From sequence record OQ411014.1: DNA of 64,000 nt; one strand, 5' to 3'. The notes below the pieces were generated by a model, which saw nothing but the letters and a program-made list of their open reading frames with translations, had not been told where the DNA came from and searched no databases. Made by a program: the position numbers and the translations under genes. Every line of letters begins with the position of its first letter. Position 1 is the stretch's first letter. This DNA is from Escherichia phage EJP2. This document shows, in pieces, positions 8,345 to 35,010 of the stretch.

Positions 8345-8351
8345 AAAGTAC

Positions 8352-9326: not shown

Positions 9327-9372
9327 CTGTTCTATATTATATTTCACTTGTATTTTATCTCATGGAGTCCCT

Positions 9373-12223: not shown

Positions 12224-12247
12224 TAACATTTATAACAATCATATAAC

Positions 12248-13349: not shown

Positions 13350-13936
13350 CGTATCGCTCATTAGCAGCTAAAGCCGAGCATGAATTATATCTAATGCAAA
13401 AGATGAAGAATCTCTTATACAAGTACGAAAACAACGAAGACATTTCTTCTTATCATTCAGTACAGCTTAGTAAGCATTTTAGTATTTTATATTTCAAGGA
13501 CGATGTTGGTATTTTGTCATTGTGTCACCTTCCTAGTGGTTCATTTAATACGGACACAACAACGCTTATACAAGTTTATTCACATTACAGTGATATAGAA
13601 AATATTAGCTCACCGAGAATCCTTGAGTCCTATTACAATCAATCATCGAGTAATATGGTCAGGAATGTGTATAATGATTTCTTGCGGTTTAGACCTTCAA
13701 TTGATGATGATGAGTTACGGGTTATCATTCCTACAGTACAGCAAATGGATTTGAGTACAGAAGAGGGGGAGTTTCAGTTCATTACGGCGAACGACGATTC
13801 AGTACTTGACGTTATGAAATATTTGCAGTACATTACAAGGAATAAGTTCGATAGAACATTCACAACGAGCTTTAGTGATTTAGTACCTGAAGCGATTGCA
13901 GCATGGGATGAGTATTATGAGCGATTTCAGTCCTGA
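13346..13936 (+). CDS. FQ-motif paralog family protein
   Basis: Motif LSTEEGEFQF; ATGA overlap. Confidence 0.65.
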   Translation: MTYRSLAAKAEHELYLMQKMKNLLYKYENNEDISSYHSVQLSKHFSILYFKDDVGILSLCHLPSGSFNTDTTTLIQVYSHYSDIENISSPRILESYYNQSSSNMVRNVYNDFLRFRPSIDDDELRVIIPTVQQMDLSTEEGEFQFITANDDSVLDVMKYLQYITRNKFDRTFTTSFSDLVPEAIAAWDEYYERFQS

Positions 13937-13968
13937 GATTATTCAAGCAGCTAAGGATATTGAGAGTT

Positions 13969-14535
13969 ATGAGCGACGATTTAGTACAGAAGATTAGTTC
14001 CACAGTTCATGTATTGAAGTTTATGCATAATTTACAAACACAGCTAATACAGGACAATATCATTCCTGGTATTTTTTCATTAGAATTGAATAAAGAATTC
14101 AAGATAACATATGTAGATTATGATAAGTCATGTACATTGAAATTAATGTACGCACCATCAGTGCATTCTGCGTTTGCTAATCAGCAACTTGATGTTGTTG
14201 TGTTAACAATATCGAAATCAGACACATCCCCAGAGTCATCTTATTCACCGCAGCATTACCTCATTTCGAATAAAGATACACAAAGAATCAAGACCACAGC
14301 ATACAAGAATGCACAGGAATGGATACCAATTATTCCTAAGAGCGAGCTTGATTTGAGTACAGAAGAGGCAGATTTTCAGTACAGGATGATTTACGACGAT
14401 GTAGTACTTGATATGTTGAAATTCGTTCAGGCAGTTCAAGATGAAGTGTACGTAGATTTTTGTACATTTTTATCTCCAGTAATATACAGAGCACATGAGG
14501 CAATTGTACGATATGAAAATAAAATTAGAATTTGA
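13969..14535 (+). CDS. FQ-motif paralog family protein
   Basis: Motif LSTEEADFQY; ATG 13969 preferred over TTG 13960. Confidence 0.6.
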   Translation: MSDDLVQKISSTVHVLKFMHNLQTQLIQDNIIPGIFSLELNKEFKITYVDYDKSCTLKLMYAPSVHSAFANQQLDVVVLTISKSDTSPESSYSPQHYLISNKDTQRIKTTAYKNAQEWIPIIPKSELDLSTEEADFQYRMIYDDVVLDMLKFVQAVQDEVYVDFCTFLSPVIYRAHEAIVRYENKIRI

Positions 14536-16654: not shown

Positions 16655-16810
16655 TGTAATGTTATAATATAACATATATTGGCTTTTATTATGTAGTCCT
16701 GAGATCGGGGGATAGGGGTCAAAAAATTTTCCGCTCCGCAAAGTATATTAATAAGGTATAATACGCGGGGCGGCGGTGGCGGCGGCGAGATTGCGATTAG
16801 GGTGGATTTT

Positions 16811-17179
16811 ATGTTAGATCATGATTTTCGGTTGCACACACATATAGTCCAGGGTGTATATCATTTTTATTGTAACGTACATAAAGGTGATACCAGTCAT
16901 AGAAGGCACGTATATATTTCTTATCTTAATGGTGCGTTTTCGTTCATTAGTTATGAGAATTATAAGTACGGTTCTCGGACAGATCATCCTATGCAGGATT
17001 ATACAGTACTGGATGAGGGTGGGAGATTTCAGGCAGAATTAGTGCTTGATGCAAATTCTGTTCTTACATTAGATGAGATTATTTTCATTCAGAATCTAAT
17101 GAAAGAGTTCTCGGTGCGTGCACAAAATTCTGAAGAATTTGAACACGATTACTATTTCAATATAGGAATTCCATCATGA
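16811..17179 (+). CDS. FQ-motif paralog, 120-aa subfamily copy 1
   Basis: Motif EGGRFQAELV; ATG 16811 preferred over GTG 16802; GC-rich leader upstream. Confidence 0.6.
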   Translation: MLDHDFRLHTHIVQGVYHFYCNVHKGDTSHRRHVYISYLNGAFSFISYENYKYGSRTDHPMQDYTVLDEGGRFQAELVLDANSVLTLDEIIFIQNLMKEFSVRAQNSEEFEHDYYFNIGIPS

Positions 17180-17535
17180 CATATGATTTTTTCTTACATG
17201 CTTACAAAGGAAAAGGTATCTATCAGTACTATTGCAATGTCAATAAAAATGACATAAAATATAATCTGAACGAATTCATCTTTTACGTACAAGGTGTGTT
17301 TAAGTTTGTGGACTACAGTAAGGATATTCAACATGATAGAAGTGATATGTTAGATTATTCAGTACTGAATGAAGCTGAACTCTTCCAAGCAGAAGTAGCT
17401 TATAATTTGGAGTACATTCTTCCATTGCACGAAATTGCTGCTATCCAGAGAACAATAAAAGAGTTTGCCAGTACTGTAAATGTATCAGATGACACTAAAA
17501 AAGAGTACTATTTCAATATAGGAATTCCATCATGA
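17176..17535 (+). CDS. FQ-motif paralog, 120-aa subfamily copy 2
   Basis: Motif EAELFQAEVAYN; N-terminus MTYDFFLHA; ATGA overlap. Confidence 0.7.
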   Translation: MTYDFFLHAYKGKGIYQYYCNVNKNDIKYNLNEFIFYVQGVFKFVDYSKDIQHDRSDMLDYSVLNEAELFQAEVAYNLEYILPLHEIAAIQRTIKEFASTVNVSDDTKKEYYFNIGIPS

Positions 17536-17888
17536 CATATGATTTTTTCTTACACGCTCATAAACACAAAGGTTTTTATCAGTACTATTGTAATGTTCAT
17601 AAAAATGATACCATGCACAGTATGGACCATTATATCAATTACTCAGAAGGGAAGTTTCAATTTCTGGACTACGGTATTGTATCTAAACCATATCGTGATA
17701 TGATAGATTATTCAGTACTGACAGAGGCTGAACTATTCCAAGCAGAAGTAGCTTATAACAGTGAGTACATTCTTACGTTGGATGAAGTTGTTGCTATCCA
17801 GACTATAATGAAAGAATATGTCCAGAATGTACCTGATCCAGCGGAAACAAATGATCAGTACTTTTTCAATATAGGGAATCCAGAATGA
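17532..17888 (+). CDS. FQ-motif paralog, 120-aa subfamily copy 3
   Basis: Motif EAELFQAEVAYN; junction DNA identical to previous copy. Confidence 0.7.
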   Translation: MTYDFFLHAHKHKGFYQYYCNVHKNDTMHSMDHYINYSEGKFQFLDYGIVSKPYRDMIDYSVLTEAELFQAEVAYNSEYILTLDEVVAIQTIMKEYVQNVPDPAETNDQYFFNIGNPE

Positions 17889-18253
17889 CAGAGAATAGTT
17901 TTGATTTTTCATTGTTCGTATCAGTGTATGAAGAAATATATTGCAATCTCATCAAAGGTGATATTGAGCATAACAAGTCAACATTCATCAAGTACAAAAA
18001 ATCTACATCTACATCTGCATTTACATTTAGATTTGTAGATTACGATAATAATCAAAGAATGCAACCTATACAGGATTATACAGTACTGAATGAGGCTGAA
18101 AGATTTCAGGCAGCGTTGGTATATGAAGAAAAGTATCTCGTTACTATGGATGAAATGATTGCTATCCAACAAGAAATAAAAAATCACGTAAAAGAGTACG
18201 GTATGAGTTCAGTACTGGGTAAGAGATTACATTTCAATATAGATAAGGAATAA
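17885..18253 (+). CDS. FQ-motif paralog, 120-aa subfamily copy 4
   Basis: Motif EAERFQAALVY. Confidence 0.7.
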   Translation: MTENSFDFSLFVSVYEEIYCNLIKGDIEHNKSTFIKYKKSTSTSAFTFRFVDYDNNQRMQPIQDYTVLNEAERFQAALVYEEKYLVTMDEMIAIQQEIKNHVKEYGMSSVLGKRLHFNIDKE

Positions 18254-21258: not shown

Positions 21259-21287
21259 TTGACGGGTGTTGTGCTTTCGGGTACAAT
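21259..21287 (+). promoter_or_regulatory. sigma70-like promoter with palindromic spacer (operator-like)
   Basis: -35 TTGACG, 17 nt, -10 TACAAT; inverted repeat CGGGTGTTGT..ACAATACCCG spans -35 to -10. Confidence 0.5.
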
Positions 21288-21320
21288 ACCCGTTATTCGT
21301 TTATAGAGAGGAATAAAATC

Positions 21321-21944
21321 GTGAGCAATAAAAACATCAAGGCGTTATTGAATCTGTTACACTTCGCTAAGAAATTAAACACACAAGGTAATGAAGGTGA
21401 TGTAGTAAAAGTTGATACTGATGGTTTAGTTTTGACGTTCCGTAATTCCAATGTTGGTCATGTTACACTATCACTGTTTAGTATTGGGCGGGATATTTCG
21501 TTTTCTAGTACTGTATTCAAGATGTCAGTACTGCAAGGTGCTATGATATATCGTTCCGATGCTATGTTTTCTGATACGGTTGCGTGGGTCACAATCGCTG
21601 ATGACCCTGTAACTAAAATCGGTCTAGATAATCACATTGCATCAGTTCCGGTTCCTACTATCCGTGATATCAATTCAGAAGATGATTTGGAAGTACTGAA
21701 GTTCAATCTGGACTTGACTAATGATAATGCCATTGACCCGGACTTGGTAGCACTCGTTGCTGCGATGAATTCGAATGAAAACTTCTATTCAGTTGGGTAT
21801 ACACTGTATTATCCTTTCAGTGAAAATATGAAGTACGAACAGTACTGGGATTGTGTAGTCAAACACGTCCAACAATACAGCGATGATTCATTAGCTAAAC
21901 GTATTCTAAATGAAGTACTAGGGAGTTATCCAAATGTTATGTAA
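21321..21944 (+). CDS. hypothetical protein (207 aa)
   Basis: GTG start after RBS AGAGGAAT; ORF track. Confidence 0.6.
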   Translation: MSNKNIKALLNLLHFAKKLNTQGNEGDVVKVDTDGLVLTFRNSNVGHVTLSLFSIGRDISFSSTVFKMSVLQGAMIYRSDAMFSDTVAWVTIADDPVTKIGLDNHIASVPVPTIRDINSEDDLEVLKFNLDLTNDNAIDPDLVALVAAMNSNENFYSVGYTLYYPFSENMKYEQYWDCVVKHVQQYSDDSLAKRILNEVLGSYPNVM

Positions 21945-22521
21945 TAAGTTAGGGGTATTGATTGATATCCTACATCGTTCAATACTGAAGTCTAAGGGGT
22001 ATATAATCTTAGGACACTCTAAAGTACTGGATAAACGAATTGCTTTTCGTTATAGTAAAGTTCTAAATGACATAACTGTAGTGGCTGAAGATGTTGATCC
22101 AGATGATAGTTCTCTGGTACTGTCTAGGATTAAACTCATTGGTATTCCTATTGACAACAACACTGCTAGTTATCGTGGGATATATGCAACCGACCGCTTC
22201 ATCTCGTGGAGATCTCAAGAACAAAGTTGTGATGAATTCTACCACAGGAGTACTGATGAGTTCATGACTATGTATCCCAAGAGTGAAGTACTGAAGATTA
22301 TGACTGACACAGATTATGCGGAGTGTCATAAGTTCAGTGCTTTGTTGCAGATGGATGAACTCCTTTATATACAGCGTGTAGTACTGTCATGGTTAGGGTC
22401 TAAAGATAGAAACGAAGGATACGTCATCGCTGACAATTCCATTCTCAACGAAGATGTAGTTCAAGAGATAATTGGTCTATTTGATAAAGAACTGGAGAAG
22501 TACGATGAATATAACAAATGA
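21934..22521 (+). CDS. hypothetical protein (195 aa)
   Basis: ORF track; 11-nt overlap ATGTTATGTAA. Confidence 0.6.
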   Translation: MLCNKLGVLIDILHRSILKSKGYIILGHSKVLDKRIAFRYSKVLNDITVVAEDVDPDDSSLVLSRIKLIGIPIDNNTASYRGIYATDRFISWRSQEQSCDEFYHRSTDEFMTMYPKSEVLKIMTDTDYAECHKFSALLQMDELLYIQRVVLSWLGSKDRNEGYVIADNSILNEDVVQEIIGLFDKELEKYDEYNK

Positions 22522-23059
22522 AATCAAAGTACTGAAATTATTGGAGAAAGTACTGAAAAGTTCCAAGAGTACTGAAATTGAGTTCTGTACTTTTTCCAGG
22601 TCTTTTGTATGTCATGAACTCCCTGGTATGGAACTCCTGGTTACTAAAGGTTTAGTTCGTGTAGTACAAGATAAGATTACTGCGGTAGCTTGTATTGTGG
22701 AGAGTTCTTATTCCCCTCCTAGTACGATTGGTGATAACGGTACTTTTATTATTAGTTCAGCATACGAGAATGTACGAGATAATTCATTGAAGGATGTAGT
22801 TCTTCCCGCTTCTCTTGAAAATTTAGATTTCAATGCCGAAGAAGAACTACAAGGCGTATTCTTTCAGTACTGTACAGTAGTAGATGAAGTTACGGCACTG
22901 GGTGTTGTTGTACATAATTACTTCAAGCAGTATCATGTGTACAATCCTGATGAGTGTAATTGCTGTACTTATTCACGTTGGGTCACAAGAAATGATGGCT
23001 TTAGTGATGAGTTTGTGTTAGCATTACAGAAAATACAGGAGGAATTCTATGTTTGTTAG
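22505..23059 (+). CDS. FQ-motif paralog family protein
   Basis: Motif GVFFQYCTVVD; ATG 22505 preferred over 22472. Confidence 0.55.
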   Translation: MNITNEIKVLKLLEKVLKSSKSTEIEFCTFSRSFVCHELPGMELLVTKGLVRVVQDKITAVACIVESSYSPPSTIGDNGTFIISSAYENVRDNSLKDVVLPASLENLDFNAEEELQGVFFQYCTVVDEVTALGVVVHNYFKQYHVYNPDECNCCTYSRWVTRNDGFSDEFVLALQKIQEEFYVC

Positions 23060-23663
23060 AGATAATAGTCACAACATAGAAGAGGTTGAATTGCTGGATT
23101 TATTCGTAATGCTGGAAGCACTCTTCCAGTTCTGTGTAGATACATTACCATATAAACAGTCTTTGTCTCGACCAGTGATTTTTCCTTTAGGGCATTCTTA
23201 TAGTACTGAACTTGTGGTACAGGAGGAATTACTACGTCTTAGAGTAAGTGCTGGTTATGATGAAAGTGCTCTTACTATTATCATTACTCCTGATTACAGT
23301 GATAATGAAAGTCGTTGTGAGTTCGATTTCAATACTTCCAGATTTCGAATTCAGATGAGTGACAAGCACAGAACAGATTTGGCAGTACTAAGTATTGTTG
23401 ACCACACAGGAACTCGAAAAATTAGTAGGAATGTTGGTCTAACATGGGGTGAAGAAGAGTACTTTCAGAATATGCTTACACATGATTTCTTACATCCTCT
23501 TGATGTGATACAAGAAACCAATGCAGTATATAAGAACTTCAGTTCGCTTCCAAAAGGTCAGTCCTGTAAGGTTACTTTCATTGCTGGGGAACTATTTTCG
23601 AATCCTAAACTCTACAATGAACTACTTCGCAAACTACGTATCAGTATTGAACTATTCAAATAA
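23049..23663 (+). CDS. FQ-motif paralog family protein
   Basis: Motif GEEEYFQNMLTHD. Confidence 0.65.
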   Translation: MFVRDNSHNIEEVELLDLFVMLEALFQFCVDTLPYKQSLSRPVIFPLGHSYSTELVVQEELLRLRVSAGYDESALTIIITPDYSDNESRCEFDFNTSRFRIQMSDKHRTDLAVLSIVDHTGTRKISRNVGLTWGEEEYFQNMLTHDFLHPLDVIQETNAVYKNFSSLPKGQSCKVTFIAGELFSNPKLYNELLRKLRISIELFK

Positions 23664-23672
23664 GGGTATATA

Positions 23673-24299
23673 ATGTCTTATAGTAAGAATGTAGTATTTC
23701 AACGTTATGATATCATTAAAGAGATTTGTGATATCGCAGTGTACGTTCATGAGACGTACGTAAAGAGTTCTACTGTTTGTGGGTTGACACATATTCGTTT
23801 ACCATTGAATTCAATGAAAATTTTGTTCAGTGGTGGTCAAGGAAATGAAGATTACACCTTCCACATGGAGATTATCAGTACTGACAGTAATGAAAGTGTA
23901 AATCTTTCATTTGACAATATTGATTTGAGGGATGATAATACTCTTCCTATGTTTATGGAAATAGACACGACGAGTAACTCATTTAGTTTAGACTGTCGTG
24001 GTACTGCACAGATTATTCGTGTTCCAGTGCTGAAAGGTAATGACGATTATGATGTGATTGATATCCCTTATGCGATGGATGATATCAATACACTGGAGAG
24101 TGTTTTATTCCAGTACAGTACTTTGTATTCTAATGTCCCAGAAAGTACTGATTTCCTTCGGGCGTACACTTGTATGAAAGATATGGTACTCCAGAATAAC
24201 ATGCAATTTGGTAATATAACTAATACTACGAATGACAATAAGTATTTCAACGTAGAAAAACTGAAGAGTGCATATGAAGAACTACGAGCTATCCGCTAA
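23673..24299 (+). CDS. FQ-motif paralog family protein
   Basis: Motif LESVLFQYSTLY. Confidence 0.65.
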   Translation: MSYSKNVVFQRYDIIKEICDIAVYVHETYVKSSTVCGLTHIRLPLNSMKILFSGGQGNEDYTFHMEIISTDSNESVNLSFDNIDLRDDNTLPMFMEIDTTSNSFSLDCRGTAQIIRVPVLKGNDDYDVIDIPYAMDDINTLESVLFQYSTLYSNVPESTDFLRAYTCMKDMVLQNNMQFGNITNTTNDNKYFNVEKLKSAYEELRAIR

Positions 24300-24738
24300 G
24301 AAGTTTGCGAAGAAACTGTACGACATTTATGAAAGTACTAAGAACGTGCGAGAAGTAAAGTACGTACGTTCGTATTGTTTCCGGTATTACAAGGACGGTA
24401 CTATACTTGTGTATCGTAAAAATAGAAATGAAGTGTACGATCCAGTACTGCATTTTGTTCTTAGTGATCATACTAAGTACTTTCATTACTTCAAAAAGAA
24501 TGATGTAGTATATACTTTTGACAATCGTTTGGAGTTGGATTGTGACTTCTTTGATAATTTCACAGAAGAGAAGAAGTTTCAAATGTCTCTAATGTATACT
24601 GAACATGAAATGTTTTTGAAGTTCTTGGCTTATGAAATTCAAAATATCTTCAAAGATGCAGTAAAAGTTGTACGTATAAACTCAAGTGATATTAGATGTT
24701 ACACTCCAGTACTGAAAGCTGCTAAGGATATAAAATGA
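24268..24738 (+). CDS. FQ-motif paralog family protein
   Basis: Motif TEEKKFQMSLMY; start 24268 or 24274. Confidence 0.55.
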   Translation: MHMKNYELSAKKFAKKLYDIYESTKNVREVKYVRSYCFRYYKDGTILVYRKNRNEVYDPVLHFVLSDHTKYFHYFKKNDVVYTFDNRLELDCDFFDNFTEEKKFQMSLMYTEHEMFLKFLAYEIQNIFKDAVKVVRINSSDIRCYTPVLKAAKDIK

Positions 24739-25307
24739 AACGCTCAGGGTTATTCGAATTCATTCTAGATACTAAAAAGTACTTATCACTGTACAATCTA
24801 ATGGAGAGGATGAACAGGTACAATCTTGAATACACGTCATCACTCTTTGGTGAAATGCACGACACAGTACATAACATAAACTTCAGTACTAATGCTGTTT
24901 CTTTTACACTAGAAGAGTACGATACTAAGTTCATGTCTTATACACTAGATCGTACCAGTACTAAAGAATATCCATTTACTGGTAGGATTCATCCTTCGTA
25001 TATTAGTATGTACAAGTACATGAATTTCATTGACTGTACTCCGTGCTGGAACAACCCAGAAACGACTGAAGAAAAGAAAGCCCTTGACGAAGCATTCATC
25101 CAATTACCTGGTTTTAACTACGGTGATATCAGTGCTGAACTATTTCAGATAGCTATGCAACATGAAATTCTTTCTGAAAAAGAGTTGCAAGAGGTAGTGA
25201 ATCGTGTGTATAATCTACCTTATATGGGTAATACGATTTTGCACTTAACGAATAACATAAGTCAAATCGAACACACTGATTTAGACAAATTCCTACGAGG
25301 CTACTAA
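24735..25307 (+). CDS. FQ-motif paralog family protein
   Basis: Motif SAELFQIAMQHE; ATGA overlap. Confidence 0.65.
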   Translation: MKRSGLFEFILDTKKYLSLYNLMERMNRYNLEYTSSLFGEMHDTVHNINFSTNAVSFTLEEYDTKFMSYTLDRTSTKEYPFTGRIHPSYISMYKYMNFIDCTPCWNNPETTEEKKALDEAFIQLPGFNYGDISAELFQIAMQHEILSEKELQEVVNRVYNLPYMGNTILHLTNNISQIEHTDLDKFLRGY

Positions 25308-25958
25308 ATGTCATCTAAAGAAACAGTACCAGCTAAACTAAAAGACTTCTATGCAGTACTGAAGGCTATTCAGGATTACAGTACTGCAATGAATAAGTTC
25401 ATTGATAAAAACAAATCCAAATTCGAAATCTGTTTACCCAAGACTAAGGGTAAAATTTTGTTCGATTGTAATAATATCATGTTCAGGAATAAAGATAACT
25501 TCATGATCTTTCGTGTTTCTGATATGGTTGAGTTGGCTGGTGCATGGGGGACTTTGCAATTCGATTTGACTGGTGATTTCGAAGCATGTAGAGCTTGGGA
25601 TGAATACGTGATTTATCTCGACGAAGAGTGTTCTGTTGTTACTGACTACGATAGCAGTACTAAACTCTTACAGCTAAGTGCGTCCAACTCATATGGTGAT
25701 TCTCCTGACATTTCTTTGGAATGTGTAATCGAGTCCATTGAGGATGTTGAGAAATTCATCTTCCAACTGGAATTAGTATACGATGGTGAATTGTTACCAG
25801 TGCAGGACGTATATGCCGCCATCAAGGACGTACATGATTTCAAGAAATCAAAACTACCTAAGAATAGTGTATTACAGATTTATTCACAGTTAGATATGTC
25901 TTACATTCATGAAGCTATTGAGGTCTTAGAATGCATAAAACCAAACACCAAGCGGTAG
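25308..25958 (+). CDS. FQ-motif paralog family protein
   Basis: Motif VEKFIFQLELVYD. Confidence 0.65.
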   Translation: MSSKETVPAKLKDFYAVLKAIQDYSTAMNKFIDKNKSKFEICLPKTKGKILFDCNNIMFRNKDNFMIFRVSDMVELAGAWGTLQFDLTGDFEACRAWDEYVIYLDEECSVVTDYDSSTKLLQLSASNSYGDSPDISLECVIESIEDVEKFIFQLELVYDGELLPVQDVYAAIKDVHDFKKSKLPKNSVLQIYSQLDMSYIHEAIEVLECIKPNTKR

Positions 25959-26527
25959 ATTATACTCAAGTACTGAAAGAATACATCCCTAAGATGGTAG
26001 TACTGTATGAGCGTTTTGGTGCTAAGTATCCTCAAGGTACAAGCCTTGAAACACCCACTTCCGTTCACAATCCAAATGGTGAAAGAGTACGTTTACGTAT
26101 TCATACTGATGGTGTTAGTCTTATTACTGAATGTGATTCATACGGTATTATGTTGAAGGTTGGGGACAAGAAAGTACTGGATTATGATTATAATTCCAGA
26201 ATCTCCAAGAAGTTTATGTTCATTACTCCTATGAGTGAAACATGTGTACTCGACATTTGTGATTGGTCTTCTATTGGTTTTGTCATGGCTGGTGAGGGTT
26301 ACTACACACCAGAACGTCAGTACAGTGATTTTGATAGTTGTTACTTTCAAGAATCTTTATTGCACGACTGTTATGATTATGATACAGTACTGAAACAAGT
26401 TCAAACAGTGAAAGAATTGCACGCTGTGGTTGTGGGTACACAATATGAAATTGATGTTAGTTCGACTAATCTCAGTACTGAAAAATTACTCAAAGCCATG
26501 AAGATGGTTGATAAACTATTGGAGTGA
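25931..26527 (+). CDS. FQ-motif paralog family protein
   Basis: Motif DSCYFQESLLHD. Confidence 0.6.
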   Translation: MHKTKHQAVDYTQVLKEYIPKMVVLYERFGAKYPQGTSLETPTSVHNPNGERVRLRIHTDGVSLITECDSYGIMLKVGDKKVLDYDYNSRISKKFMFITPMSETCVLDICDWSSIGFVMAGEGYYTPERQYSDFDSCYFQESLLHDCYDYDTVLKQVQTVKELHAVVVGTQYEIDVSSTNLSTEKLLKAMKMVDKLLE

Positions 26528-26531
26528 AAGA

Positions 26532-27062
26532 ATGATTACCAAAGATACAGCATGGATGATTCGTGACATTTATCGTTACGCTAAACATATATTACAGACA
26601 CAAAATACCCCAAGCTGTTGTGATGGTATTGGAATTGATGGTGAATATCATAATGTATTTCGTTTACTCACATCCAAACATTTAGTTGATACGTATGAAA
26701 TAGCTATTCATGTTGGGTCTGTAAACCATTCTGGATTTATGGAGTTCGTTGATTATCGTACAACAACAAGACCAGATATGGTATTATGTAGTTATAATGA
26801 TGATTGGAAGAACATTCAGAAGCTATCTAACCCTCTAAAGGATTTGGATTTCTGTGCAGATTGGGAAGCGGCGAGTTTCCAGGCTGAATGTGTATGTGCT
26901 GATATGAACGAAACAGTACTGGACGCATTGATTATACATAGTTTTATCAAAGATTTATCAGAAGAGACTTATCGCTTTATTCTGGACACGACCGCTCTCT
27001 GTACTGACGGACGATTGGATGAAGCAAAAGTGAAGATAGTTCATTCATCTTTCTTTGATTAG
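26532..27062 (+). CDS. FQ-motif paralog family protein
   Basis: Motif EAASFQAECVC; ATG 26532 with RBS GGAG preferred over TTG 26508. Confidence 0.6.
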   Translation: MITKDTAWMIRDIYRYAKHILQTQNTPSCCDGIGIDGEYHNVFRLLTSKHLVDTYEIAIHVGSVNHSGFMEFVDYRTTTRPDMVLCSYNDDWKNIQKLSNPLKDLDFCADWEAASFQAECVCADMNETVLDALIIHSFIKDLSEETYRFILDTTALCTDGRLDEAKVKIVHSSFFD

Positions 27063-27065
27063 TAA

Positions 27066-27094
27066 TTGACAAGCATTGTATCTTCGGGTACAAT
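27066..27094 (+). promoter_or_regulatory. sigma70-like promoter with palindromic spacer (operator-like)
   Basis: -35 TTGACA, 17 nt, -10 TACAAT; perfect inverted repeat AAGCATTGTA..TACAATGCTT. Confidence 0.55.
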
Positions 27095-27117
27095 GCTTTT
27101 TTTATAGGAGAAATACT

Positions 27118-27756
27118 ATGATTTCGTATGAGTTTTTTGTAGGTGTTTCGAAGATTACTACTGAACTTCTAAATGTATATCGATACATGTTCGATAATAA
27201 TGATACGTTATTGTTTCAGGATTTTGACGCTGAGGATCATGATTCAGGATTTGTATTGGAGTTCTATCCACGACGCATATGCTTCTCGGATATTGTTGAA
27301 AGTTATAATACCTTACTGTCTATAACTCCATCAGAAAGTGCCCACGCGATATACAAAGGAACTATGTCCGATGAAAGGTCCATAATTACAGTTTCTGATG
27401 CAAGGTCGTGTGATTTTATACATTTATCCCACTACAGTGCTCTTACAAAAATCAATAAGAATACGCCTATTCCTTCTTTCAGTACTCCAAGTACAGCAGA
27501 AGAATTTGAGCAGACAGCGTTTCAGTTGATGATGTTATACGAAGAAGATGTAGTTGATTTATTTTTACTGAACAGTTATGTTGGGCCATTACTTGAAGGT
27601 ACTTCTATGAAATTCTTCAGTGCTACTAAGTTGTACTACCTTAGTCCAGTGGACTTGAATAACATGCTAGTGTTACTCCAAGAGCAATTCAAGAAAATAC
27701 TCCAATATAAAGAGGCGAAGAATGATTACTTACGACAAGTGCAAAGCTATCAGTGA
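27118..27756 (+). CDS. FQ-motif paralog, MISYEKC subfamily copy 1
   Basis: Motif EQTAFQLMMLYEED; ATG 27118 preferred over TTG 27076 which lies in the promoter. Confidence 0.65.
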   Translation: MISYEFFVGVSKITTELLNVYRYMFDNNDTLLFQDFDAEDHDSGFVLEFYPRRICFSDIVESYNTLLSITPSESAHAIYKGTMSDERSIITVSDARSCDFIHLSHYSALTKINKNTPIPSFSTPSTAEEFEQTAFQLMMLYEEDVVDLFLLNSYVGPLLEGTSMKFFSATKLYYLSPVDLNNMLVLLQEQFKKILQYKEAKNDYLRQVQSYQ

Positions 27757-28330
27757 ATTGTTTACAGTACTACTGGATGTGAAGAAGTACTTATTACAAA
27801 ATAACATATACATACTTCGGTCTAAGTATGATATTGAACATAAAGATTTCAGGATTGAATTCTTTTCATCTGGAAACTGTGAACTATTTCGAACATACCC
27901 AGTGTATACTAGACTTTGTACTATTGGAATGTGCACATCACTGCGGAGTGTTTTTAAAGAACCCAAAGAAAAAGAAGGGTATTTGTGTACATTTTCCGAT
28001 CATAGTGTGTTTATGCACAAAGATGAATTCGTTACAAGAACAGGTTATGATAATGTTTTTCAACCTTTATGGGTAAATGATTGCAAACACAATCAAGATG
28101 AAGTAGAGAGTGCTTTGTTCCAGATCAGTACTGTGTACAATGAAGAAGATGCGGATTTAGTAATATTGTATAACTTCATTCGCAATGCATTAGAAGGTTC
28201 TCGTTTGCGTTTATCGTTTACAGATCTTTTACTTGAGTGTACGATTTGTGAGGTTCATGTGTTGACTGAACTAACTAAAAGTCGATTTCAGAAAATCCAA
28301 GAAGATTATCCAGTAGGTGAATGTAAATGA
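27722..28330 (+). CDS. FQ-motif paralog, MISYEKC subfamily copy 2
   Basis: N-terminus MITYDKCKAIS; motif ESALFQISTVYNEED. Confidence 0.65.
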   Translation: MITYDKCKAISELFTVLLDVKKYLLQNNIYILRSKYDIEHKDFRIEFFSSGNCELFRTYPVYTRLCTIGMCTSLRSVFKEPKEKEGYLCTFSDHSVFMHKDEFVTRTGYDNVFQPLWVNDCKHNQDEVESALFQISTVYNEEDADLVILYNFIRNALEGSRLRLSFTDLLLECTICEVHVLTELTKSRFQKIQEDYPVGECK

Positions 28331-28926
28331 TTTCATATGAAAAATGTCAAGCTATTTCGAATTTAGTAGTTGAACTTGTAGCTACTAAGGATGCAATAAT
28401 GAATCGTAAATTTACAACTTCTCGTTACAGAGCATCTTTTGAGATTTTCAATGATGATATTAGAATTGAATTTTCTATAGCGGGGAATTGCGATATATAT
28501 CAAACATCCCAATCAACAGATCGATTGTGTTCAATAATGTCAGATCAATGCATGTTTAGTTTGTTCGAGAGAGAGTCCGTGTTAGTAGGTTCGAATACTT
28601 ATCAATTTTATGATCATAAAAATGCAGTGCATGACTATTACTGTAAATCATTCTCACTCAATCACATCAAACATCCAATATGGATAGGTGAGTGCACTGC
28701 TGATAATTATGATAGTGTTGTTTTTCAATTGAGTACTGTGTATAATGAAGATATGGCTGGTCTTATGTTATTGAATAATTTCATTCGACCAATTCTTGAG
28801 GGTACTGGTTTTAAATTTACCGCACATAGTTTGTTATTGCAGTTACCTGTTGAAACCATCGAGTGTGCTACTTTGTTATTACAGAAACAACATCAAAAAA
28901 TCTCCAGACAAGGTGAATGTAAATGA
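28327..28926 (+). CDS. FQ-motif paralog, MISYEKC subfamily copy 3
   Basis: N-terminus MISYEKCQAIS; motif DSVVFQLSTVYNED; ATGA overlap. Confidence 0.7.
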   Translation: MISYEKCQAISNLVVELVATKDAIMNRKFTTSRYRASFEIFNDDIRIEFSIAGNCDIYQTSQSTDRLCSIMSDQCMFSLFERESVLVGSNTYQFYDHKNAVHDYYCKSFSLNHIKHPIWIGECTADNYDSVVFQLSTVYNEDMAGLMLLNNFIRPILEGTGFKFTAHSLLLQLPVETIECATLLLQKQHQKISRQGECK

Positions 28927-29528
28927 TTTCATATGAGAAATGTTTAGTACTGAAAGAGTTAGCAACTACACTAATTGAGACATACCATTACATAGCCAAT
29001 AACCCACGTATCTCAGTTGGAATACTGGACGGCGAATACGACACTATGCGTAATGGATACATGGCGGTATTTTATCCGAAAGGAAACTGTTATATATATG
29101 ACAGTACTGATATATATCAGAAACCACTAATGAGTGTTCGTAAATGGCAATTGGGTATGTACACTCTATGTAAGACATTACATGACGGTTACATTACGTG
29201 TAATTTCTCAGATAATTTACTCGCTGAAGTTGATAATTATTTTACAAACACTCACGGTGCAAAAGTTACACACAATTTACCATCGATTTTGAAGTACTGT
29301 AACGCTAGTGAAGACGCTTTCAATAGTACTGTTTTTCAATTGAGTACTCTTTACGACGATGAAGACATTGAAACACTTTTGATATACTCTTTCTTGCGAG
29401 ACATGTTAGAAGGTTCTGGTATGTCCATCACAATATCATCTACAACACTAGAAGATTCAGTAGAGAAAATTATTGATGGCCTTGAATTGTTGAAATGTCA
29501 ATTAGAAAAAATGAAAAAATCAATTTGA
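28923..29528 (+). CDS. FQ-motif paralog, MISYEKC subfamily copy 4
   Basis: N-terminus MISYEKCLVLK; motif NSTVFQLSTLYDDED. Confidence 0.7.
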   Translation: MISYEKCLVLKELATTLIETYHYIANNPRISVGILDGEYDTMRNGYMAVFYPKGNCYIYDSTDIYQKPLMSVRKWQLGMYTLCKTLHDGYITCNFSDNLLAEVDNYFTNTHGAKVTHNLPSILKYCNASEDAFNSTVFQLSTLYDDEDIETLLIYSFLRDMLEGSGMSITISSTTLEDSVEKIIDGLELLKCQLEKMKKSI

Positions 29529-29529
29529 T

Positions 29530-29558
29530 TTGACAAGTGTTGTATCTTAGGGTACAAT
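29530..29558 (+). promoter_or_regulatory. sigma70-like promoter with palindromic spacer (operator-like)
   Basis: -35 TTGACA, 17 nt, -10 TACAAT; near-identical to 27066 promoter. Confidence 0.55.
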
Positions 29559-29592
29559 GCTTTTAATTAATAATTAACGAGGATTTCTTATA

Positions 29593-29985
29593 ATGATTTT
29601 GTATCATGCCAGTACTGTTAGGATTGAAAAGTTCTATATCCCATTTGGTGGCTTACACTTAGGTGGTCTGTACTCGTCCTTAGAAGCAGCCTTACGCAAG
29701 CTCAGGAGCGATTCTAACACTAATAACGATGAAACTGTGTACTTGCATAGGTGTGAAGTTGACCTCGGTAGAATCGTTTCTATGGATGATTTGGGTAGTG
29801 ATGACGAATGGCGAGCGGTTTTCAGTACTGACTATGATTCAGTTAAGTACGTAAATAAGTTCGAGCCGGATGTGCAAGCATCTTATATGCTATGGGATGC
29901 ATCTAGAGTACAAATTATTGATGTTGATCCTATTCATATGGATGACGCAGAGGATATGATAAATGAGTTTTTGGAAGAGCAATGA
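29593..29985 (+). CDS. hypothetical protein (130 aa)
   Basis: ORF track; RBS GAGGA. Confidence 0.6.
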   Translation: MILYHASTVRIEKFYIPFGGLHLGGLYSSLEAALRKLRSDSNTNNDETVYLHRCEVDLGRIVSMDDLGSDDEWRAVFSTDYDSVKYVNKFEPDVQASYMLWDASRVQIIDVDPIHMDDAEDMINEFLEEQ

Positions 29986-30535
29986 GCAACGACTTGAAGT
30001 AGTTAATACTTTCATTGATATTCTGCCAGTACTACACAAGTTCGTGGCTCGCGGGTGTGGTGAGAATAGCGTGTATAAATCTAATGTCGATGAGATATTT
30101 CTCCAAATCAATGCATATCAATCACACGTGATGTATTGTACATCAGAAAAAGTACTGAACTTGATTACCTTTGATCATGACCAAGAATATAAGTCCAATG
30201 GGGCGTTCTTTGATAGTGCAAGTTTCATTTCTGATCATTACTTGAACGCAATGAATATTCATCAGCGTAGAGATTACGTTGATGGCTTACGTGAAAGTAT
30301 TGATGCTATGAACAACACTTTCAGTACTGGGTATCTTTCAGAAGAAGAGCATTTCCAGTACAGTACTTTATTCGAAATGCCAGCATATGAAGATTTAAGT
30401 TCAATCCATGAAACTATGAATCGGTGTATTGGTGATTTTTGTTTTCAGATTCGGTTCACTAAGTTTGAAGACGTACTTATGCCACCAGAACAATTTATGG
30501 CAAAGCTAAAAGAAGGAACAGAGAAATTATGTTAG
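29963..30535 (+). CDS. FQ-motif paralog family protein
   Basis: Motif SEEEHFQYSTLFE. Confidence 0.65.
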   Translation: MSFWKSNEQRLEVVNTFIDILPVLHKFVARGCGENSVYKSNVDEIFLQINAYQSHVMYCTSEKVLNLITFDHDQEYKSNGAFFDSASFISDHYLNAMNIHQRRDYVDGLRESIDAMNNTFSTGYLSEEEHFQYSTLFEMPAYEDLSSIHETMNRCIGDFCFQIRFTKFEDVLMPPEQFMAKLKEGTEKLC

Positions 30536-30990
30536 ACGTATTAGGTAACATTGATGTAGTAAATGATATCGTTCAGGAAGGCATTCAGGGCGTTCTAGGA
30601 CGTTCTATTAGTGTAAGGAGTGGTTTGTACCAGGGTGATGGATATGCTGTTGACAGTACTAGTAAGGGGTCTGCTAGTATGACTTTTCGTGTACGCACGC
30701 AGAACTTACAGACTTTATGTACAATTTCATTGAGTCGTAAAGATATCATCATTCGTTACAATCATAAGTTCTGGTTCAAGGTGAATTTAAAAGATGGCTT
30801 AGTCAGTACTTCATTGTTCGATGAGCCGTTTATGCTACAGGAAATCAAGACAGCATTTGAGATTCAAAGCAACATTGGTTTGGGTTTACCATTGAAAGTT
30901 GAATTCGATTGTGATAAGCTGATTCAAACTATTCTTTTATGTGGGAGTTTACATGGTTCCTTTATATCGTATATTTCGATGCTTGAATAA
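30529..30990 (+). CDS. hypothetical protein (153 aa)
   Basis: ORF track; 7-nt overlap. Confidence 0.55.
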   Translation: MLDVLGNIDVVNDIVQEGIQGVLGRSISVRSGLYQGDGYAVDSTSKGSASMTFRVRTQNLQTLCTISLSRKDIIIRYNHKFWFKVNLKDGLVSTSLFDEPFMLQEIKTAFEIQSNIGLGLPLKVEFDCDKLIQTILLCGSLHGSFISYISMLE

Positions 30991-31486
30991 GAAAAAGAAA
31001 ACTACACTCAACGATGTACTACGTATCATTAGTTGTTCTAAAATGCTCAGTTCTGTGTGCTTATACAGTGGTCCAACTGTTTCACGTGCAGAACATAAAG
31101 ACGGTACTATCTATCGAATCGATGAGTCATACAAGACTGGTATTTCTTACAAGAACTTCAGAATACAGTTCGAAGAAACTCGTAGCCATTCTGGGTTTAC
31201 TATCAAGACTGCGAATTTATCTGAAGCAGCTAACAATCCGAACTTAGTGTATAACTTCCGAATCTCTAAGGATTTGAATACACTAGAAGTACTGAACATT
31301 GACAGAGGTCAACAGACTGACTTACCTGCATTTGATATCAGTAAAGAAATTACTGAAGATGTTGTATTTCAGTTCGAGTTAGTGTATCCTGAATTAGCTG
31401 TCAGTACTGATGTGCTGTTTGCATTCGTAAAGAAATTCCAACTACAAAACAAAGGTATATCAGAAGATGAGCATTTCCAGTATTGA
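30953..31486 (+). CDS. FQ-motif paralog family protein
   Basis: Motif TEDVVFQFELVYPE; second motif EDEHFQY at the stop; ATG 30953 with RBS GGGAG. Confidence 0.55.
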   Translation: MVPLYRIFRCLNKKKKTTLNDVLRIISCSKMLSSVCLYSGPTVSRAEHKDGTIYRIDESYKTGISYKNFRIQFEETRSHSGFTIKTANLSEAANNPNLVYNFRISKDLNTLEVLNIDRGQQTDLPAFDISKEITEDVVFQFELVYPELAVSTDVLFAFVKKFQLQNKGISEDEHFQY

Positions 31487-31928
31487 TGGAATATTTGATG
31501 ATTTGATGCTAGTAATCGCAGAGGAAGGTATCAACAGGACTGTAAATGAAAGGGGTTACTTCCTTCATAACACAGAAGACGGTATGATTTTTCTTCGGGA
31601 TAATTTATCTATATTAGTAGCAACTCATAACGCATCGAATTTGCAGTTAGTATTCAGTACGAAGCCCGATGACGTGTACGTTCGTGTAATGCGTTATGGC
31701 AACAAAGAAGTTCAGCAGGACTATCGTTATGAAGGTATGTTTATTTCACAGTTTGATGTATTCCAGACTATGACAGCTAATGACATTGATTTGGGATTTG
31801 TCGAAGATTGTGCACGTAAATATCTGAAACTACTATGTATTATTCAGGACAAGTGCGATGATAGTTTACGTTATGAGAATACTATCAGTACTGTTCAGAA
31901 GTACGTACAAATGTACAATACACAATAA
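31467..31928 (+). CDS. hypothetical protein (153 aa)
   Basis: ORF track; 20-nt overlap with upstream ORF. Confidence 0.5.
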   Translation: MSISSIDGIFDDLMLVIAEEGINRTVNERGYFLHNTEDGMIFLRDNLSILVATHNASNLQLVFSTKPDDVYVRVMRYGNKEVQQDYRYEGMFISQFDVFQTMTANDIDLGFVEDCARKYLKLLCIIQDKCDDSLRYENTISTVQKYVQMYNTQ

Positions 31929-31970
31929 AAAACAACACATGGATGTGTTATCAGTTCAAGGAGTGATACT

Positions 31971-32447
31971 ATGAACGTAATTACAACTGAAAGCGGAGAC
32001 GTACAGGATGTACTAACTCGTGACGCTTTCAAAATTCACAATATGATGTTCAATATAAAAGAAGTCGTACAGTGCTTATTTTATTGTTCAAAGACTATGC
32101 ATGACTTCTTTCATTCGGACATGTGTGATATGTTTGTGTGCACTGTAAATCGGGATGAGTCCTTTATTATGGGTATGCCAATGTCCGTGAATGCAGAGTA
32201 CAATGAGTGCGTACTTCGTAATAACCCAGGTTCCTCACCACAACGCGATTTGCACGTGAAGAAGAATACGTACTGCATCAAGGGTGATGATATCGTTATA
32301 ATGTTCTTGACAAAAGGTTTCATTCTTGATAACTTTACTGTCAAAGAGAGTTATCATGATTTCAGAGTTCAAGAAGATAATCCAACCGTTATGATCTATG
32401 CATCTGATATAGAGAGTTTAGCGATGGATAATCCAGGAGTGATGTAG
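31971..32447 (+). CDS. hypothetical protein (158 aa)
   Basis: ORF track; RBS AAGGAGTG. Confidence 0.65.
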   Translation: MNVITTESGDVQDVLTRDAFKIHNMMFNIKEVVQCLFYCSKTMHDFFHSDMCDMFVCTVNRDESFIMGMPMSVNAEYNECVLRNNPGSSPQRDLHVKKNTYCIKGDDIVIMFLTKGFILDNFTVKESYHDFRVQEDNPTVMIYASDIESLAMDNPGVM

Positions 32448-32593
32448 TGAAAAAGAAAAGCCAAACTAATGTACCGGATGTTCGTAACTTCGTACACAAA
32501 CATATGGAAACATTCAGTAAAGCACAGACATTCGTTGACCGTAAAAAAGACCAACGCAATGGCAAAAGAAAACATAAAGGGCAAGACTGGTAA
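32447..32593 (+). CDS. possible small basic protein (48 aa)
   Basis: GTG start overlapping upstream stop; Lys/Arg-rich; stop sits in terminator-like hairpin; speculative. Confidence 0.25.
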   Translation: MKKKSQTNVPDVRNFVHKHMETFSKAQTFVDRKKDQRNGKRKHKGQDW

Positions 32594-32608
32594 GTCTGCC
32601 CTCTTTAA
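32578..32608 (+). terminator. putative terminator hairpin
   Basis: AGGGCAAGACT-GGTA-AGTCTGCCCT with weak U-tract. Confidence 0.4.
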
Positions 32609-32627
32609 TTAACAACGTGAGGTTATC

Positions 32628-33524
32628 ATGTTTCTGAATTTCAAAGAGTACAGCCTTAAAGAATACATTGAAATGTTCAGGGCGTTCTTTAAAGACCAAA
32701 GTACAGTACTGCCCTTTGAATACTCAATTGATCGGGATTATGCCAGGACTCTTGGGTATATTATCATGCACGTAGGTGGCATGACGTTCTTGACTATTAA
32801 AGATAATGGTCAGTTCTACGTTACTGAAGATGATAATATAACTTATAGTTACAATCCGAGTAAAAATTCTGAAAAAATCGTTACTCCACGTATAGACGTC
32901 AATAAGTTCATTTGTCCTAAGACTCTAAAATCAGAAATCACTCACAAAGTTATAGTACTGAAGAATCGTACGCACGCTAATACCGGAAACTCTATAACTG
33001 TAATGGTCAAAGACAAATACGATTATACACGTTCAGCATATAAAAATAGTCCAATAAGTAATAAGTACAGTAGTGGAGTACATAAAACATTATGTATTGC
33101 ATCTAGAATGACTATTTCTGAATACTACGATGAAAGCGAAAGTACATGCATCCAAAGTTCTATTAATATTTGGAGTGATACTCTAGCGAATTGTTATAGT
33201 ATAACATTACATGAAAATCAAGGAAAATCTGTTGGTAAGATCGGTATGAGTACTTTGCATCCAAAAAACACCAGTCGCTTTACTATTGCAGATGATATTG
33301 TACAGTCTTTGCCTGATTTATCTTTGAGTCATCTCTTTAGTAATGAAGAAATTTATTTCAAATTACTATTGACACTAGAGCCTGAAGCGTGTAGACTATT
33401 CGAATTGATTCATACTGAAAGTATTGCACTTCTGAATGAAACAATAAATGACTGTACTCCATCGGAACGGAGTCCAGTACTGAGAGATGTAATAAGAAAC
33501 TTATCTATCAAGGAAGAGGGATAA
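32628..33524 (+). CDS. hypothetical protein (298 aa)
   Basis: ORF track; RBS GTGAGGT. Confidence 0.65.
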   Translation: MFLNFKEYSLKEYIEMFRAFFKDQSTVLPFEYSIDRDYARTLGYIIMHVGGMTFLTIKDNGQFYVTEDDNITYSYNPSKNSEKIVTPRIDVNKFICPKTLKSEITHKVIVLKNRTHANTGNSITVMVKDKYDYTRSAYKNSPISNKYSSGVHKTLCIASRMTISEYYDESESTCIQSSINIWSDTLANCYSITLHENQGKSVGKIGMSTLHPKNTSRFTIADDIVQSLPDLSLSHLFSNEEIYFKLLLTLEPEACRLFELIHTESIALLNETINDCTPSERSPVLRDVIRNLSIKEEG

Positions 33525-33525
33525 T

Positions 33526-33828
33526 ATGTATAAACTTGCGTTCAAGGATGGAATTGCAAAATACGCAACAATGGGCAATCGTCGAGTTCCAAGGAATGCT
33601 GAAACGATAACTCACCCAGATGGGACTACTATCTACATTGTTACTGCTACTAATGAACGAATGGCTACTGAACAGATAGTACTCCAAAGTAAGTTCGACC
33701 AGTCCAAAGTAAGTGCTCCGTACTTGCATTATGCGTACACACAGGAGATACTGGATATGGAGAACCCTGATATGTTCATGTTAGTACTGTTTGAATATGA
33801 CGAATGGCATAAACAAATTTTGTATTAA
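33526..33828 (+). CDS. hypothetical protein (100 aa)
   Basis: ORF track. Confidence 0.55.
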   Translation: MYKLAFKDGIAKYATMGNRRVPRNAETITHPDGTTIYIVTATNERMATEQIVLQSKFDQSKVSAPYLHYAYTQEILDMENPDMFMLVLFEYDEWHKQILY

Positions 33829-33845
33829 CAATCCAAAAGATTTAC

Positions 33846-33874
33846 TTGACATTGTATCTGCACTTTGATATAAT
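33846..33874 (+). promoter_or_regulatory. sigma70-like promoter
   Basis: -35 TTGACA 33846-33851, 17 nt, -10 TATAAT 33869-33874. Confidence 0.55.
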
Positions 33875-33905
33875 AGATGCACTTTACTAATAAGAGGTTT
33901 TATAA

Positions 33906-34286
33906 ATGAGTACACCTTCCGCTATTCTAAAATCAATCACTGGCGTTCTACTAATTGAGAAGAACGGTGAAGACAAGTTAGTGTGTATTGAGGACTTACG
34001 TTCTTCCAAGCACTTCAGCATCGGTCAACTATTCAATGCCATTCGCGTACTAAACAACAAGACTGTTCAACAGTACGGTGCAAAGTGGCCTCGTTCTGAT
34101 GTAGGTACTGAATGTAGTAATGATTGGCTCGCACTGAAAGCAGCGTACAAGAATTCCAATTCAGATTATGAGTTCTTGATTGAAGTATGTAATCAACTAC
34201 AAGAAACAGTACCTGAAGTTGTTGAACGTGAAAAAGTACTGAAACAATTAGAGAAGTTTCGTCACGGTACTCTAGTACTAGAATAA
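33906..34286 (+). CDS. hypothetical protein (126 aa)
   Basis: ORF track; RBS AAGAGG. Confidence 0.65.
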   Translation: MSTPSAILKSITGVLLIEKNGEDKLVCIEDLRSSKHFSIGQLFNAIRVLNNKTVQQYGAKWPRSDVGTECSNDWLALKAAYKNSNSDYEFLIEVCNQLQETVPEVVEREKVLKQLEKFRHGTLVLE

Positions 34287-34356
34287 TATAAAATCTTTTG
34301 TTATAAACTAATCAATTCAAATCAAAAAAAATTATACGGATATAAGGAATACTAAA

Positions 34357-34683
34357 ATGGAAAATACTAAATTTGATATGTTTGCATCCCTAGAAGAACG
34401 CGAATTCGAAGTAGAAGAAGTACAAACTCTAGATGAGTCTGATATTGAACTACTAACCGCATCTGAAGATGAAGCAGAAGAAGTTGAAAAGAAACGTCCT
34501 GGTATGAACCGCATTTCTCGCAGTACTGAAGAGTACAATGAAATGATTGAAAGTTCACACTACGAAACTCTAACTCATCCTGTAAGTGGTGTTGAGTACT
34601 CTGTGAAAGTAACTGTCTTCAAACCTGAAGTGAACCCACAAGAGAATATGCGTCCTGCATACGCTTACAGTACTAACCACTAA
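34357..34683 (+). CDS. hypothetical acidic protein (108 aa)
   Basis: ORF track; RBS AAGGAAT; Glu/Asp-rich. Confidence 0.65.
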   Translation: MENTKFDMFASLEEREFEVEEVQTLDESDIELLTASEDEAEEVEKKRPGMNRISRSTEEYNEMIESSHYETLTHPVSGVEYSVKVTVFKPEVNPQENMRPAYAYSTNH

Positions 34684-34692
34684 GGGTATAAA

Positions 34693-35010
34693 ATGATTTA
34701 TGAAAGTGAAATAATTTATTTCGGAATTGGGATTCTTATTGCAGTAGTAGTGTACATTATGGTTATAGTTGCAGTGTTTCGATATGCATTTGCATTGAGT
34801 ACACGCAATAATGTTGATATCGATAACTATAATGTTGCACCTGGGCTACCGTTACTAGGGTCAGAAGACTTTCCGTGGATACTGACAGCGTTACTAAGTT
34901 TAGGTGGGTATTTTTTAGGACTTCAGTTAGTCATTATCGCATGGCCTCTAATGATATTCGTAATAATTCAGGTAATTATTTCATATTCTAGAAAGAAAAA
35001 CTTTTCATAA
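34693..35010 (+). CDS. predicted integral membrane protein (105 aa)
   Basis: Hydrophobic segments ILIAVVVYIMVIVAVF and LVIIAWPLMIFVIIQVII. Confidence 0.6.
   Translation: MIYESEIIYFGIGILIAVVVYIMVIVAVFRYAFALSTRNNVDIDNYNVAPGLPLLGSEDFPWILTALLSLGGYFLGLQLVIIAWPLMIFVIIQVIISYSRKKNFS

Follow-up and report, generated by a model that had tools for sequence, protein, structure and literature searches.

Four consecutive genes of a jumbo coliphage raise the question of how two of the junctions between them came to be nearly identical in sequence when the genes that they join are not. The locus lies at positions 27118-29528 of a 64,000-nt stretch of Escherichia phage EJP2 DNA (record OQ411014.1), referred to here as the window, which holds ~90 co-directional open reading frames (ORFs) at a GC content of 35-40%. 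A sequence-only reading of this stretch had taken the four genes for a recently duplicated subfamily and, together with the promoters around them, for a duplicated cassette. Our explanation, to which we give a probability of about 70%, is a different one: the locus is an operon of old, fast-evolving paralogs in an early hyperplastic region, in which 33-nt repeats bracket a presence/absence polymorphism of the third gene, with promoters of the promoter-early stem-loop (PeSL) type and with an early accessory function.

The four genes and their repeated junction

All four genes lie on the plus strand. Copy 1 (27118-27756, 212 aa, beginning MISYEFF and ending VQSYQ) is the most divergent member and is called at 212 aa in related contigs; copy 2 (27722-28330, 202 aa) runs from MITYDKC to VGECK; copy 3 (28327-28926, 199 aa) runs from MISYEKCQ to QGECK and is present or absent among relatives; and copy 4 (28923-29528, 201 aa, MISYEKCL...MKKSI) is the last gene of the operon. 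The four ORFs match one another by BLASTP as a closed cluster (E 1e-9 to 1e-32) and can be aligned end to end, and the same comparison with the other ORFs of the window gave no match below 1e-3, so that the description of four consecutive paralogs of ~200 aa stands. The terminal motifs had been drawn too widely. Of the proposed MI[S/T]YEKC start, the form MISYEKC is found in copies 3 and 4 only; of the proposed EGS/EGT...GECK ending, LEG[ST] is common to all four, ~45 residues before the C-terminus, whereas GECK ends copies 2 and 3 only. Invariant positions of the alignment include M1, I2, Y4, F133-Q134, Y139 and L157-E158-G159, and a full-length profile with the M-I-x-Y N-terminus, the FQ motif and the LEG motif matches all four copies at E 1e-87 to 1e-97.

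The junction between copies 1 and 2 is a 35-nt overlap (27722-27756) with different codons. At the two following junctions a plus-strand sequence of 33 nt recurs, as the earlier reading had noticed: its left copy (AGGTGAATGTAAATGATTTCATATGAAAAATGT) lies at 28315-28347 and its right copy, identical at 32 of 33 positions, at 28911-28943. The left copy encodes the last four codons and the stop of copy 2, a Shine-Dalgarno (SD)-like AGGTGA, the ATGA overlap and the first seven codons of copy 3. Identity is far from being confined to the 4-nt overlap of start and stop codons, which the earlier reading had named as the result that would refute it, as it spans 12 nt upstream and 21 nt downstream of the ATG. 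The sequence occurs exactly twice in the window (none expected in shuffles), and it forms a sharply bounded island: in the same register, the flanks are identical at 14 of 48 positions upstream and 17 of 39 downstream (29-44%).

The repeat coincides with a natural difference between relatives. In L007, a contig of 105,947 nt, the same flanking elements enclose three genes, of 206, 202, and 201 aa. In a blastn comparison positions 1-6626 of this contig correspond to 21722-28347 of the window and 6594-12609 to 28911-34927; the overlap of these two high-scoring segment pairs is precisely the 33-nt repeat, and copy 3 plus one repeat make up the 596 nt by which the window is longer. The start-to-start spacing of the two repeats, 596 nt, equals the length of the indel. 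In a shorter contig (L004, 1,025 nt) copy 2 likewise runs straight into the N-terminus of copy 4. The indel keeps the ATGA overlap and both neighbouring reading frames intact. The 33-nt repeats are shown by these comparisons to be the boundaries of a natural, seamless 596-nt polymorphism that adds or removes exactly gene 3.

The island of identity is best read as sequence that was probably shared through recombination, either by gene conversion or by the event that inserted or deleted copy 3. It might instead reflect pure convergence or purifying selection, acting on the C-terminal residues, the SD of the next gene, the ATGA overlap, the N-terminal MISYEKC motif and preferred codons, in which case the copy-3 indel would end there by coincidence. 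Several features agree with such constraint: AGGTGA sits 6 nt before the ATG, MI[ST]Y[ED] is kept at the protein level in every family member, those of other genera included, every identical codon is a preferred codon, and the junction RNA is predicted to be unstructured, as is usual for an initiation region. Since AGGTGA and the conserved N-terminal motif lie inside the repeat, some selection on it is likely. However, phages with three genes carry copy-2 tails of their own, ...GGGGGATATAAATGA (PVGGYK) and ...GGCGATTGTGAATGA (PEGDCE), with tail sequences GGGGGATATAAA and GGCGATTGTGAA in which 3 of 12 nt are changed, so these 12 nt before the ATG can vary freely. Copies 1 and 2 use different codons for the N-terminal motif, and the probability that at least 9 of 10 codons are identical, given identical residues, is 0.0076 under the codon usage of the window. 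Moreover, the boundaries of the indel match the repeat to the nucleotide. Constraint as the whole explanation is thus improbable, though it is the alternative that survives best. A scan of IMG/VR gave no relative for a copy 3 query, a scan with the junction pattern gave no match, and a pattern scan of metagenomes returned two matches, both of them unrelated chance matches.

Age of the paralogs and the flanking hairpin promoters

The paralog pairs share 25-36% amino-acid and 43-50% nucleotide identity, and about half of their identical residues have identical codons. For all six pairs, the Nei-Gojobori proportion of synonymous differences (pS) is 0.70-0.76, which is saturated, and nonsynonymous divergence (dN) is 0.69-0.94. 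The copies score 47-108 bits against one another, compared to 30-85 bits against the single homologue of Erwinia phage Hallingskeid and two uncultivated lineages. Hallingskeid is the nearest isolate in a collection of 50,697 phage records that does not contain OQ411014; it gave the sole match when copy 3 was searched against this collection by tblastn, and megablast of the region gave zero matches. The family of the MISYEKC type is very small: among 1.84 billion proteins it accounts for only 8 clusters at 50% identity. With pS saturated, amino-acid identity at 25-36%, and a distance between copies that resembles the distance to homologues in other genera, the four genes are true paralogs, but old and fast-evolving ones, and the claim of recent duplication is wrong.

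A palindromic promoter directly before copy 1 and a nearly identical one after copy 4 had been reported, and both are found. The first is part of a putative composite promoter/terminator element of the PeSL type (27060-27117, plus strand). It starts with the stop codon of the preceding ORF (27060-27062), followed by a -35 box TTGACA (27066-27071) and a hairpin with a 12-bp stem and a UUCG loop (27071-27098) that carries a -10 box TACAAT (27089-27094) in its 3' arm; a T-run (27097-27103) comes after the stem, and an SD sequence, AGGAG, lies at 27106-27110. The predicted RNA fold has a free energy of -15.4 kcal/mol (z -5.1). The second, a composite promoter/hairpin element (29530-29592, plus strand), has its -35 box at 29530-29535, its hairpin at 29535-29562 (12-bp stem, -14.0 kcal/mol), its -10 box at 29553-29558 and an SD sequence, GAGGA, at 29579-29583. 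It is present in all EJP2-like loci and probably drives a conserved 130-aa ORF at 29593. Both promoters are of the form TTGACA-N17-TACAAT and are identical at 32 of 35 positions, and each element extends from the stop of the preceding gene to the SD and start of the next. A third copy (21259-21295, plus strand, TTGACG-N17-TACAAT) stands at the start of the preceding ten-gene unit, with a fold of -23.8 kcal/mol. The stems of the three elements are 12 to 16 bp long (z -4 to -6.3), and the sigma-70 consensus pattern has 11 matches in the window, against 1.26 expected.

In Hallingskeid, L018 and L020 the upstream element also stands before the one family member, and its stem shows a compensatory change from A-T to G-C. 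Both elements are kept in each of the EJP2-like loci examined, and none of these has an indel bounded by the two. With no indel of this kind, and no second four-gene block in the window, the proposal of a duplicated cassette is unsupported; the same promoter type is found at 21259 and before the single-copy homologue of other genera. The hairpin-promoter elements are more readily seen as delimiting an operon, that is, a transcription unit.

A recent tandem duplication, of which the repeated junctions and the flanking promoters would be remnants, could account for a tandem set of genes of similar length that align end to end, and for junctions identical at 32 of 33 positions between promoters identical at 32 of 35. 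The saturated divergence of the gene bodies, the equal distance to homologues in other genera, the occurrence of the promoter type elsewhere and the lack of a second block make it very unlikely.

The window contains other paralogs and repeats. A second four-gene family (16802-18253, 118-125 aa) has the same kind of repeated junction, in the form of 39-nt identical stop/start junctions at 17158-17196 and 17514-17552 (caatataggaattccatcATGACATATGATTTTTTCTTA). Its gene bodies are 60-76% identical in nucleotides, so its members are genuinely younger duplicates; it is probably the subfamily that the sequence-only reading had counted as the first. Two neighbouring paralogs (13346-13936 and 13960-14535) share a 73-nt patch of 77% identity (13748-13820 and 14350-14422) that covers the FQ-motif region. 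Positions 1-8430 contain 11-12 copies of an intergenic repeat of ~75-82 nt, each before a short ORF and each with a promoter-like TTGCA...TATAAT, a G/C-rich stem-loop (GAGCGGGGGAAT..TTCTCCCGC) and an SD sequence, which appears to be a second, polyG/polyC class of PeSL-like elements.

Variation among relatives

Comparison with related genomes, which the sequence-only reading had suggested as a check of copy number, revealed variation. EJP2-like contigs have four or three clear family members, Hallingskeid, L018, and L020 have one each, and the 14.4-kb region of phage 121Q (L008) has none. Copy 3 is missing from L004, L007 and L010-L017. The three-gene layout is present in at least 21 metagenomic contigs with protein P0036 (eight places examined), which come from different samples and from Logan, SPAdes, and MEGAHIT assemblies. 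Copy 3 itself forms just one 90% cluster in 5.8e9 proteins. The flanks of the indel are mosaic, and no direction, loss or gain, can be derived from them.

A collapsed 33-nt repeat in the assemblies would also make copy 3 appear absent. Logan assembly uses k=31, and sample ERR11507041 has one contig that stops after the first 30 nt of a perfect 33-mer and a second that starts at the last 30 nt of it, which is the signature of a repeat of at least 31 nt in a k=31 graph. However, the copy-2 tails at the three-gene junctions are allele-specific and do not occur in four-gene genomes, which excludes a collapsed repeat as the origin of these junctions; the junctions are spanned in contigs of up to 105,947 nt, and the layout recurs across three assemblers and many samples. 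Absence as an artefact of assembly is hardly tenable.

The tail of copy 1 overlaps the start of copy 2 in another frame (27722-27756, compared to L007 6001-6017), and in the three-gene phages a GAC to GAT change, synonymous in copy 2, creates a TAA in the frame of copy 1, which shortens that protein from 212 to 206 aa.

Among near-identical phages, copy 2 is strongly polymorphic, and its alleles have amino-acid identities of 99, 74, and 68%. In L002 a 74% allele has replaced copy 2, and copy 2 only, inside a stretch of ~5 kb that is otherwise almost identical, and mismatch density between the window and relatives of 98-99% identity is patchy, as in a mosaic. Synonymous divergence (dS) is 0.29-0.38 among copy-2 alleles and 0.016 for copy 4 between the window and L007, and the raised dS in the variable part of copy 2 points to a divergent donor. 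The ratio of dN to dS (omega) among the alleles is 0.43-0.66, with 0.58-0.66 for the differences that are concentrated in residues 21-120, and positive selection on copy 2 is not demonstrated. Such a pattern indicates weak constraint together with recombination from divergent donors. Hypermutation by a diversity-generating retroelement, which the concentration of allele differences in residues 21-120 might suggest for copy 2 or the cluster, has a negligible probability and is ruled out for copy 2 by the substitution spectrum, as substitutions follow base composition (A 31, T 33, C 18, G 17) at all codon positions rather than being adenine-specific, dS is raised as well, no template repeat was found in the window, and Pfam scans of its ten larger ORFs found no reverse transcriptase.

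Function, setting and known systems

Copies 2-4 share 90% protein clusters with EJP02_058, 059, and 060 of Escherichia phage EJP2 (OQ411014, 349 kb), where they are annotated as hypothetical proteins only, and the DNA ligase of the window shares 76% identity with the ligase of coliphages 121Q and PBECO4. The source is an EJP2-like, Rak2-type jumbo coliphage. EJP2 belongs to the Rak2-like group, and 471 of its 540 ORFs are hypothetical (PMC10213699). Between conserved neighbour genes, the slot that holds four or three ORFs in EJP2-like loci holds 13 in Hallingskeid, and the region is therefore considered hyperplastic. The 130-aa ORF downstream (29593-29985, MILYHASTV..., phrog_11632) is a single-copy anchor in 69 phage records, nearly all with enterobacterial hosts; at 40-80% identity among Rak2-like phages, it helps to mark the limits of the variable slot. 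Pfam scans of the ten larger ORFs also identified a T4-type RNA ligase 1, a polynucleotide kinase/phosphatase and a NUDIX/cytidylyltransferase protein. The first two (47727-50499) and the ATP-dependent DNA ligase (53966-55381) are clustered downstream of the paralog arrays and look like a tRNA/RNA repair set.

The four proteins are acidic (pI 4.6-5.7) and hydrophilic, and nothing above threshold was found for them in Pfam, PHROGs, NCBIfam, PADLOC or PDB sequences. An AlphaFold2 (AF2) model of a family protein (predicted local distance difference test score, pLDDT, 83.9; predicted template modelling score, pTM, 0.85) has as its sole fold matches, by Foldseek in BFVD, uncharacterised ~200-aa proteins of Rak2-like phages. 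The predicted fold consists of a helix at the N-terminus, a sheet of seven strands and a helical bundle at the C-terminus. An iterative hidden Markov model recruits ~40 of the 96 long plus-strand ORFs at 10.3-47.7 kb, compared to 2 of 192 decoys, and hhalign joins the subfamilies at an E..FQxS motif (probability 66-73%, E 3-5e-5), which suggests a likely, loose superfamily of ~40 window ORFs sharing E..FQxS[T]. For ORF 23673, a distant member of the superfamily, the AF2 model has a pLDDT of 48 and is too poor for a comparison of folds. In the jumbo phage vB_PcaM_CBB (CBB), RpoD-like promoters are concentrated among short hypothetical ORFs, which have been read as early host-takeover genes (PMC5259590). 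By analogy we infer, as the weakest step of the argument, that the four proteins may be early accessory or host-takeover proteins.

The locus might work as follows. Host sigma-70 polymerase would start at the consensus promoter, in which a hairpin is made up of the spacer and the -10 box, and this hairpin would double as a terminator for upstream transcripts. Genes 2-4 would be translated by coupling, through the start/stop overlaps and the SD-like sequences in the last codons of each preceding gene. The two direct repeats may be recombined by the phage's own recombination machinery, and the exact ends of the indel fit homologous recombination between them; the event could have been a deletion or unequal crossover, or equally a one-gene circle could have been excised and integrated again, as has been suggested for PeSL cassettes. 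T4-type recombination is stated to need <50 bp of homology (Singer et al. 1982, as cited in PMC2839356). The products would be small, acidic, cytoplasmic early accessory proteins, and if they act on host or defence targets, this would explain both the turnover of alleles and the variation in copy number.

Several points weigh against this explanation of the operon, its polymorphism and its function. Recombination at the repeat is read from assembled sequences alone, 33 nt is short for efficient homologous recombination, and the repeat could be the footprint of a single past event, or it could owe its preservation in part to selection that acts on the SD, on the start region and on the N-terminal motif. 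The low diversity of copy 3, with its one cluster, also fits a recent gain, and the four-gene block shows no sign of mobility, as no promoter-bounded indel was seen. As to function, omega in copy 2 is not above 1, no match in family, defence or structure databases supports an assignment, and the assignment made here draws on genomic context only. A bolder version, in which the 33-nt stop/start junction would serve recombination as a functional module and be the coding equivalent of the PeSL for seamless gain, loss and exchange of genes in a translationally coupled operon, and in this way would let Rak2-type jumbo phages shuffle a large set of early effector paralogs of a previously unseen fold, is tentative, and we regard it as doubtful.

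A palindromic octamer, CAGTACTG, stands apart from these subjects. It is the commonest 8-mer of the window, with 107 occurrences against 1.04 expected and a median spacing of 472 nt, and it lies inside genes of all kinds, such as copy 2 (28126), copy 4 (29102), the RNA ligase (48131, 48337, and 48562) and the DNA ligase (54054 and 54936). Its density is 1.57/kb in Hallingskeid and 1.7/kb in EJP2-like contigs, and lower, 0.63/kb, in 121Q. Among the Ser-Thr dipeptides of long plus-strand ORFs in the window, 92 of 150 (61%) are encoded by AGTACT, compared to 17% expected from codon usage, so within coding sequence it is as DNA that the octamer core is enriched. Searching the literature for the string gave nothing relevant; the octamer could be a binding, modification or recombination site.

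Rak2-group jumbo phages give tens of kilobases to arrays of unannotated ~200-aa genes, and the present locus suggests that such arrays are an old, rapidly turning-over superfamily. It gives a concrete handle on the shuffling of accessory early genes, and it yields defined candidate host-interaction proteins for EJP2, a phage proposed for therapy. A short conserved gene-boundary sequence, here a coding stop/start junction, coincides exactly with the natural gain or loss of a whole gene, and PeSL-like promoter hairpins are counted among such boundary sequences.

Repeat-mediated deletion and unequal crossover are well known from tandem gene arrays. As in such arrays, short direct repeats flank the variable segment and the product keeps one repeat copy. 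In contrast to them, the repeat lies exactly on a translationally coupled stop/start junction, so that loss or gain is seamless for both neighbours, and it is far more conserved than the genes that it joins. Among Rak2-like jumbo phages, CBB (PMC5259590) resembles the window in its long co-directional arrays of short hypothetical ORFs, its RpoD-like promoters and the recognition of some ORFs as paralogs; in the published accounts of CBB and EJP2 we did not find the four-gene family, the ~40-member superfamily or the junction repeats described.

The closest comparison is with the PeSLs of T4-type phages (Arbiol et al. 2010, PMC2839356; Comeau et al. 2014, PMC4122927). In these, the stem-loop is commonest between the promoter boxes or over the -10 box (PMC2839356), and promoter and terminator activity and a role in cassette shuffling have been demonstrated for them (PMC2839356; PMC4122927). 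The elements at 27066, 29530, and 21259 are alike in that they start at an upstream stop, contain a sigma-70 consensus promoter, end with an SD and the next start, and are repeated within a region of ORFans; the one-gene indel between short direct repeats also follows a logic like that of PeSL-mediated excision and insertion. They differ in belonging to a Rak2-type jumbo phage rather than a Tevenvirinae-type genome, and in having AT-rich stems with UUCG or UUAG loops rather than polyG/polyC. The indel observed here is bounded by coding junctions inside an operon and not by promoter elements, and the promoter, terminator and mini-circle activities are putative, being known from sequence alone. 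With these likenesses and differences, the locus is a variant of the modular shuffling already known in large phages.

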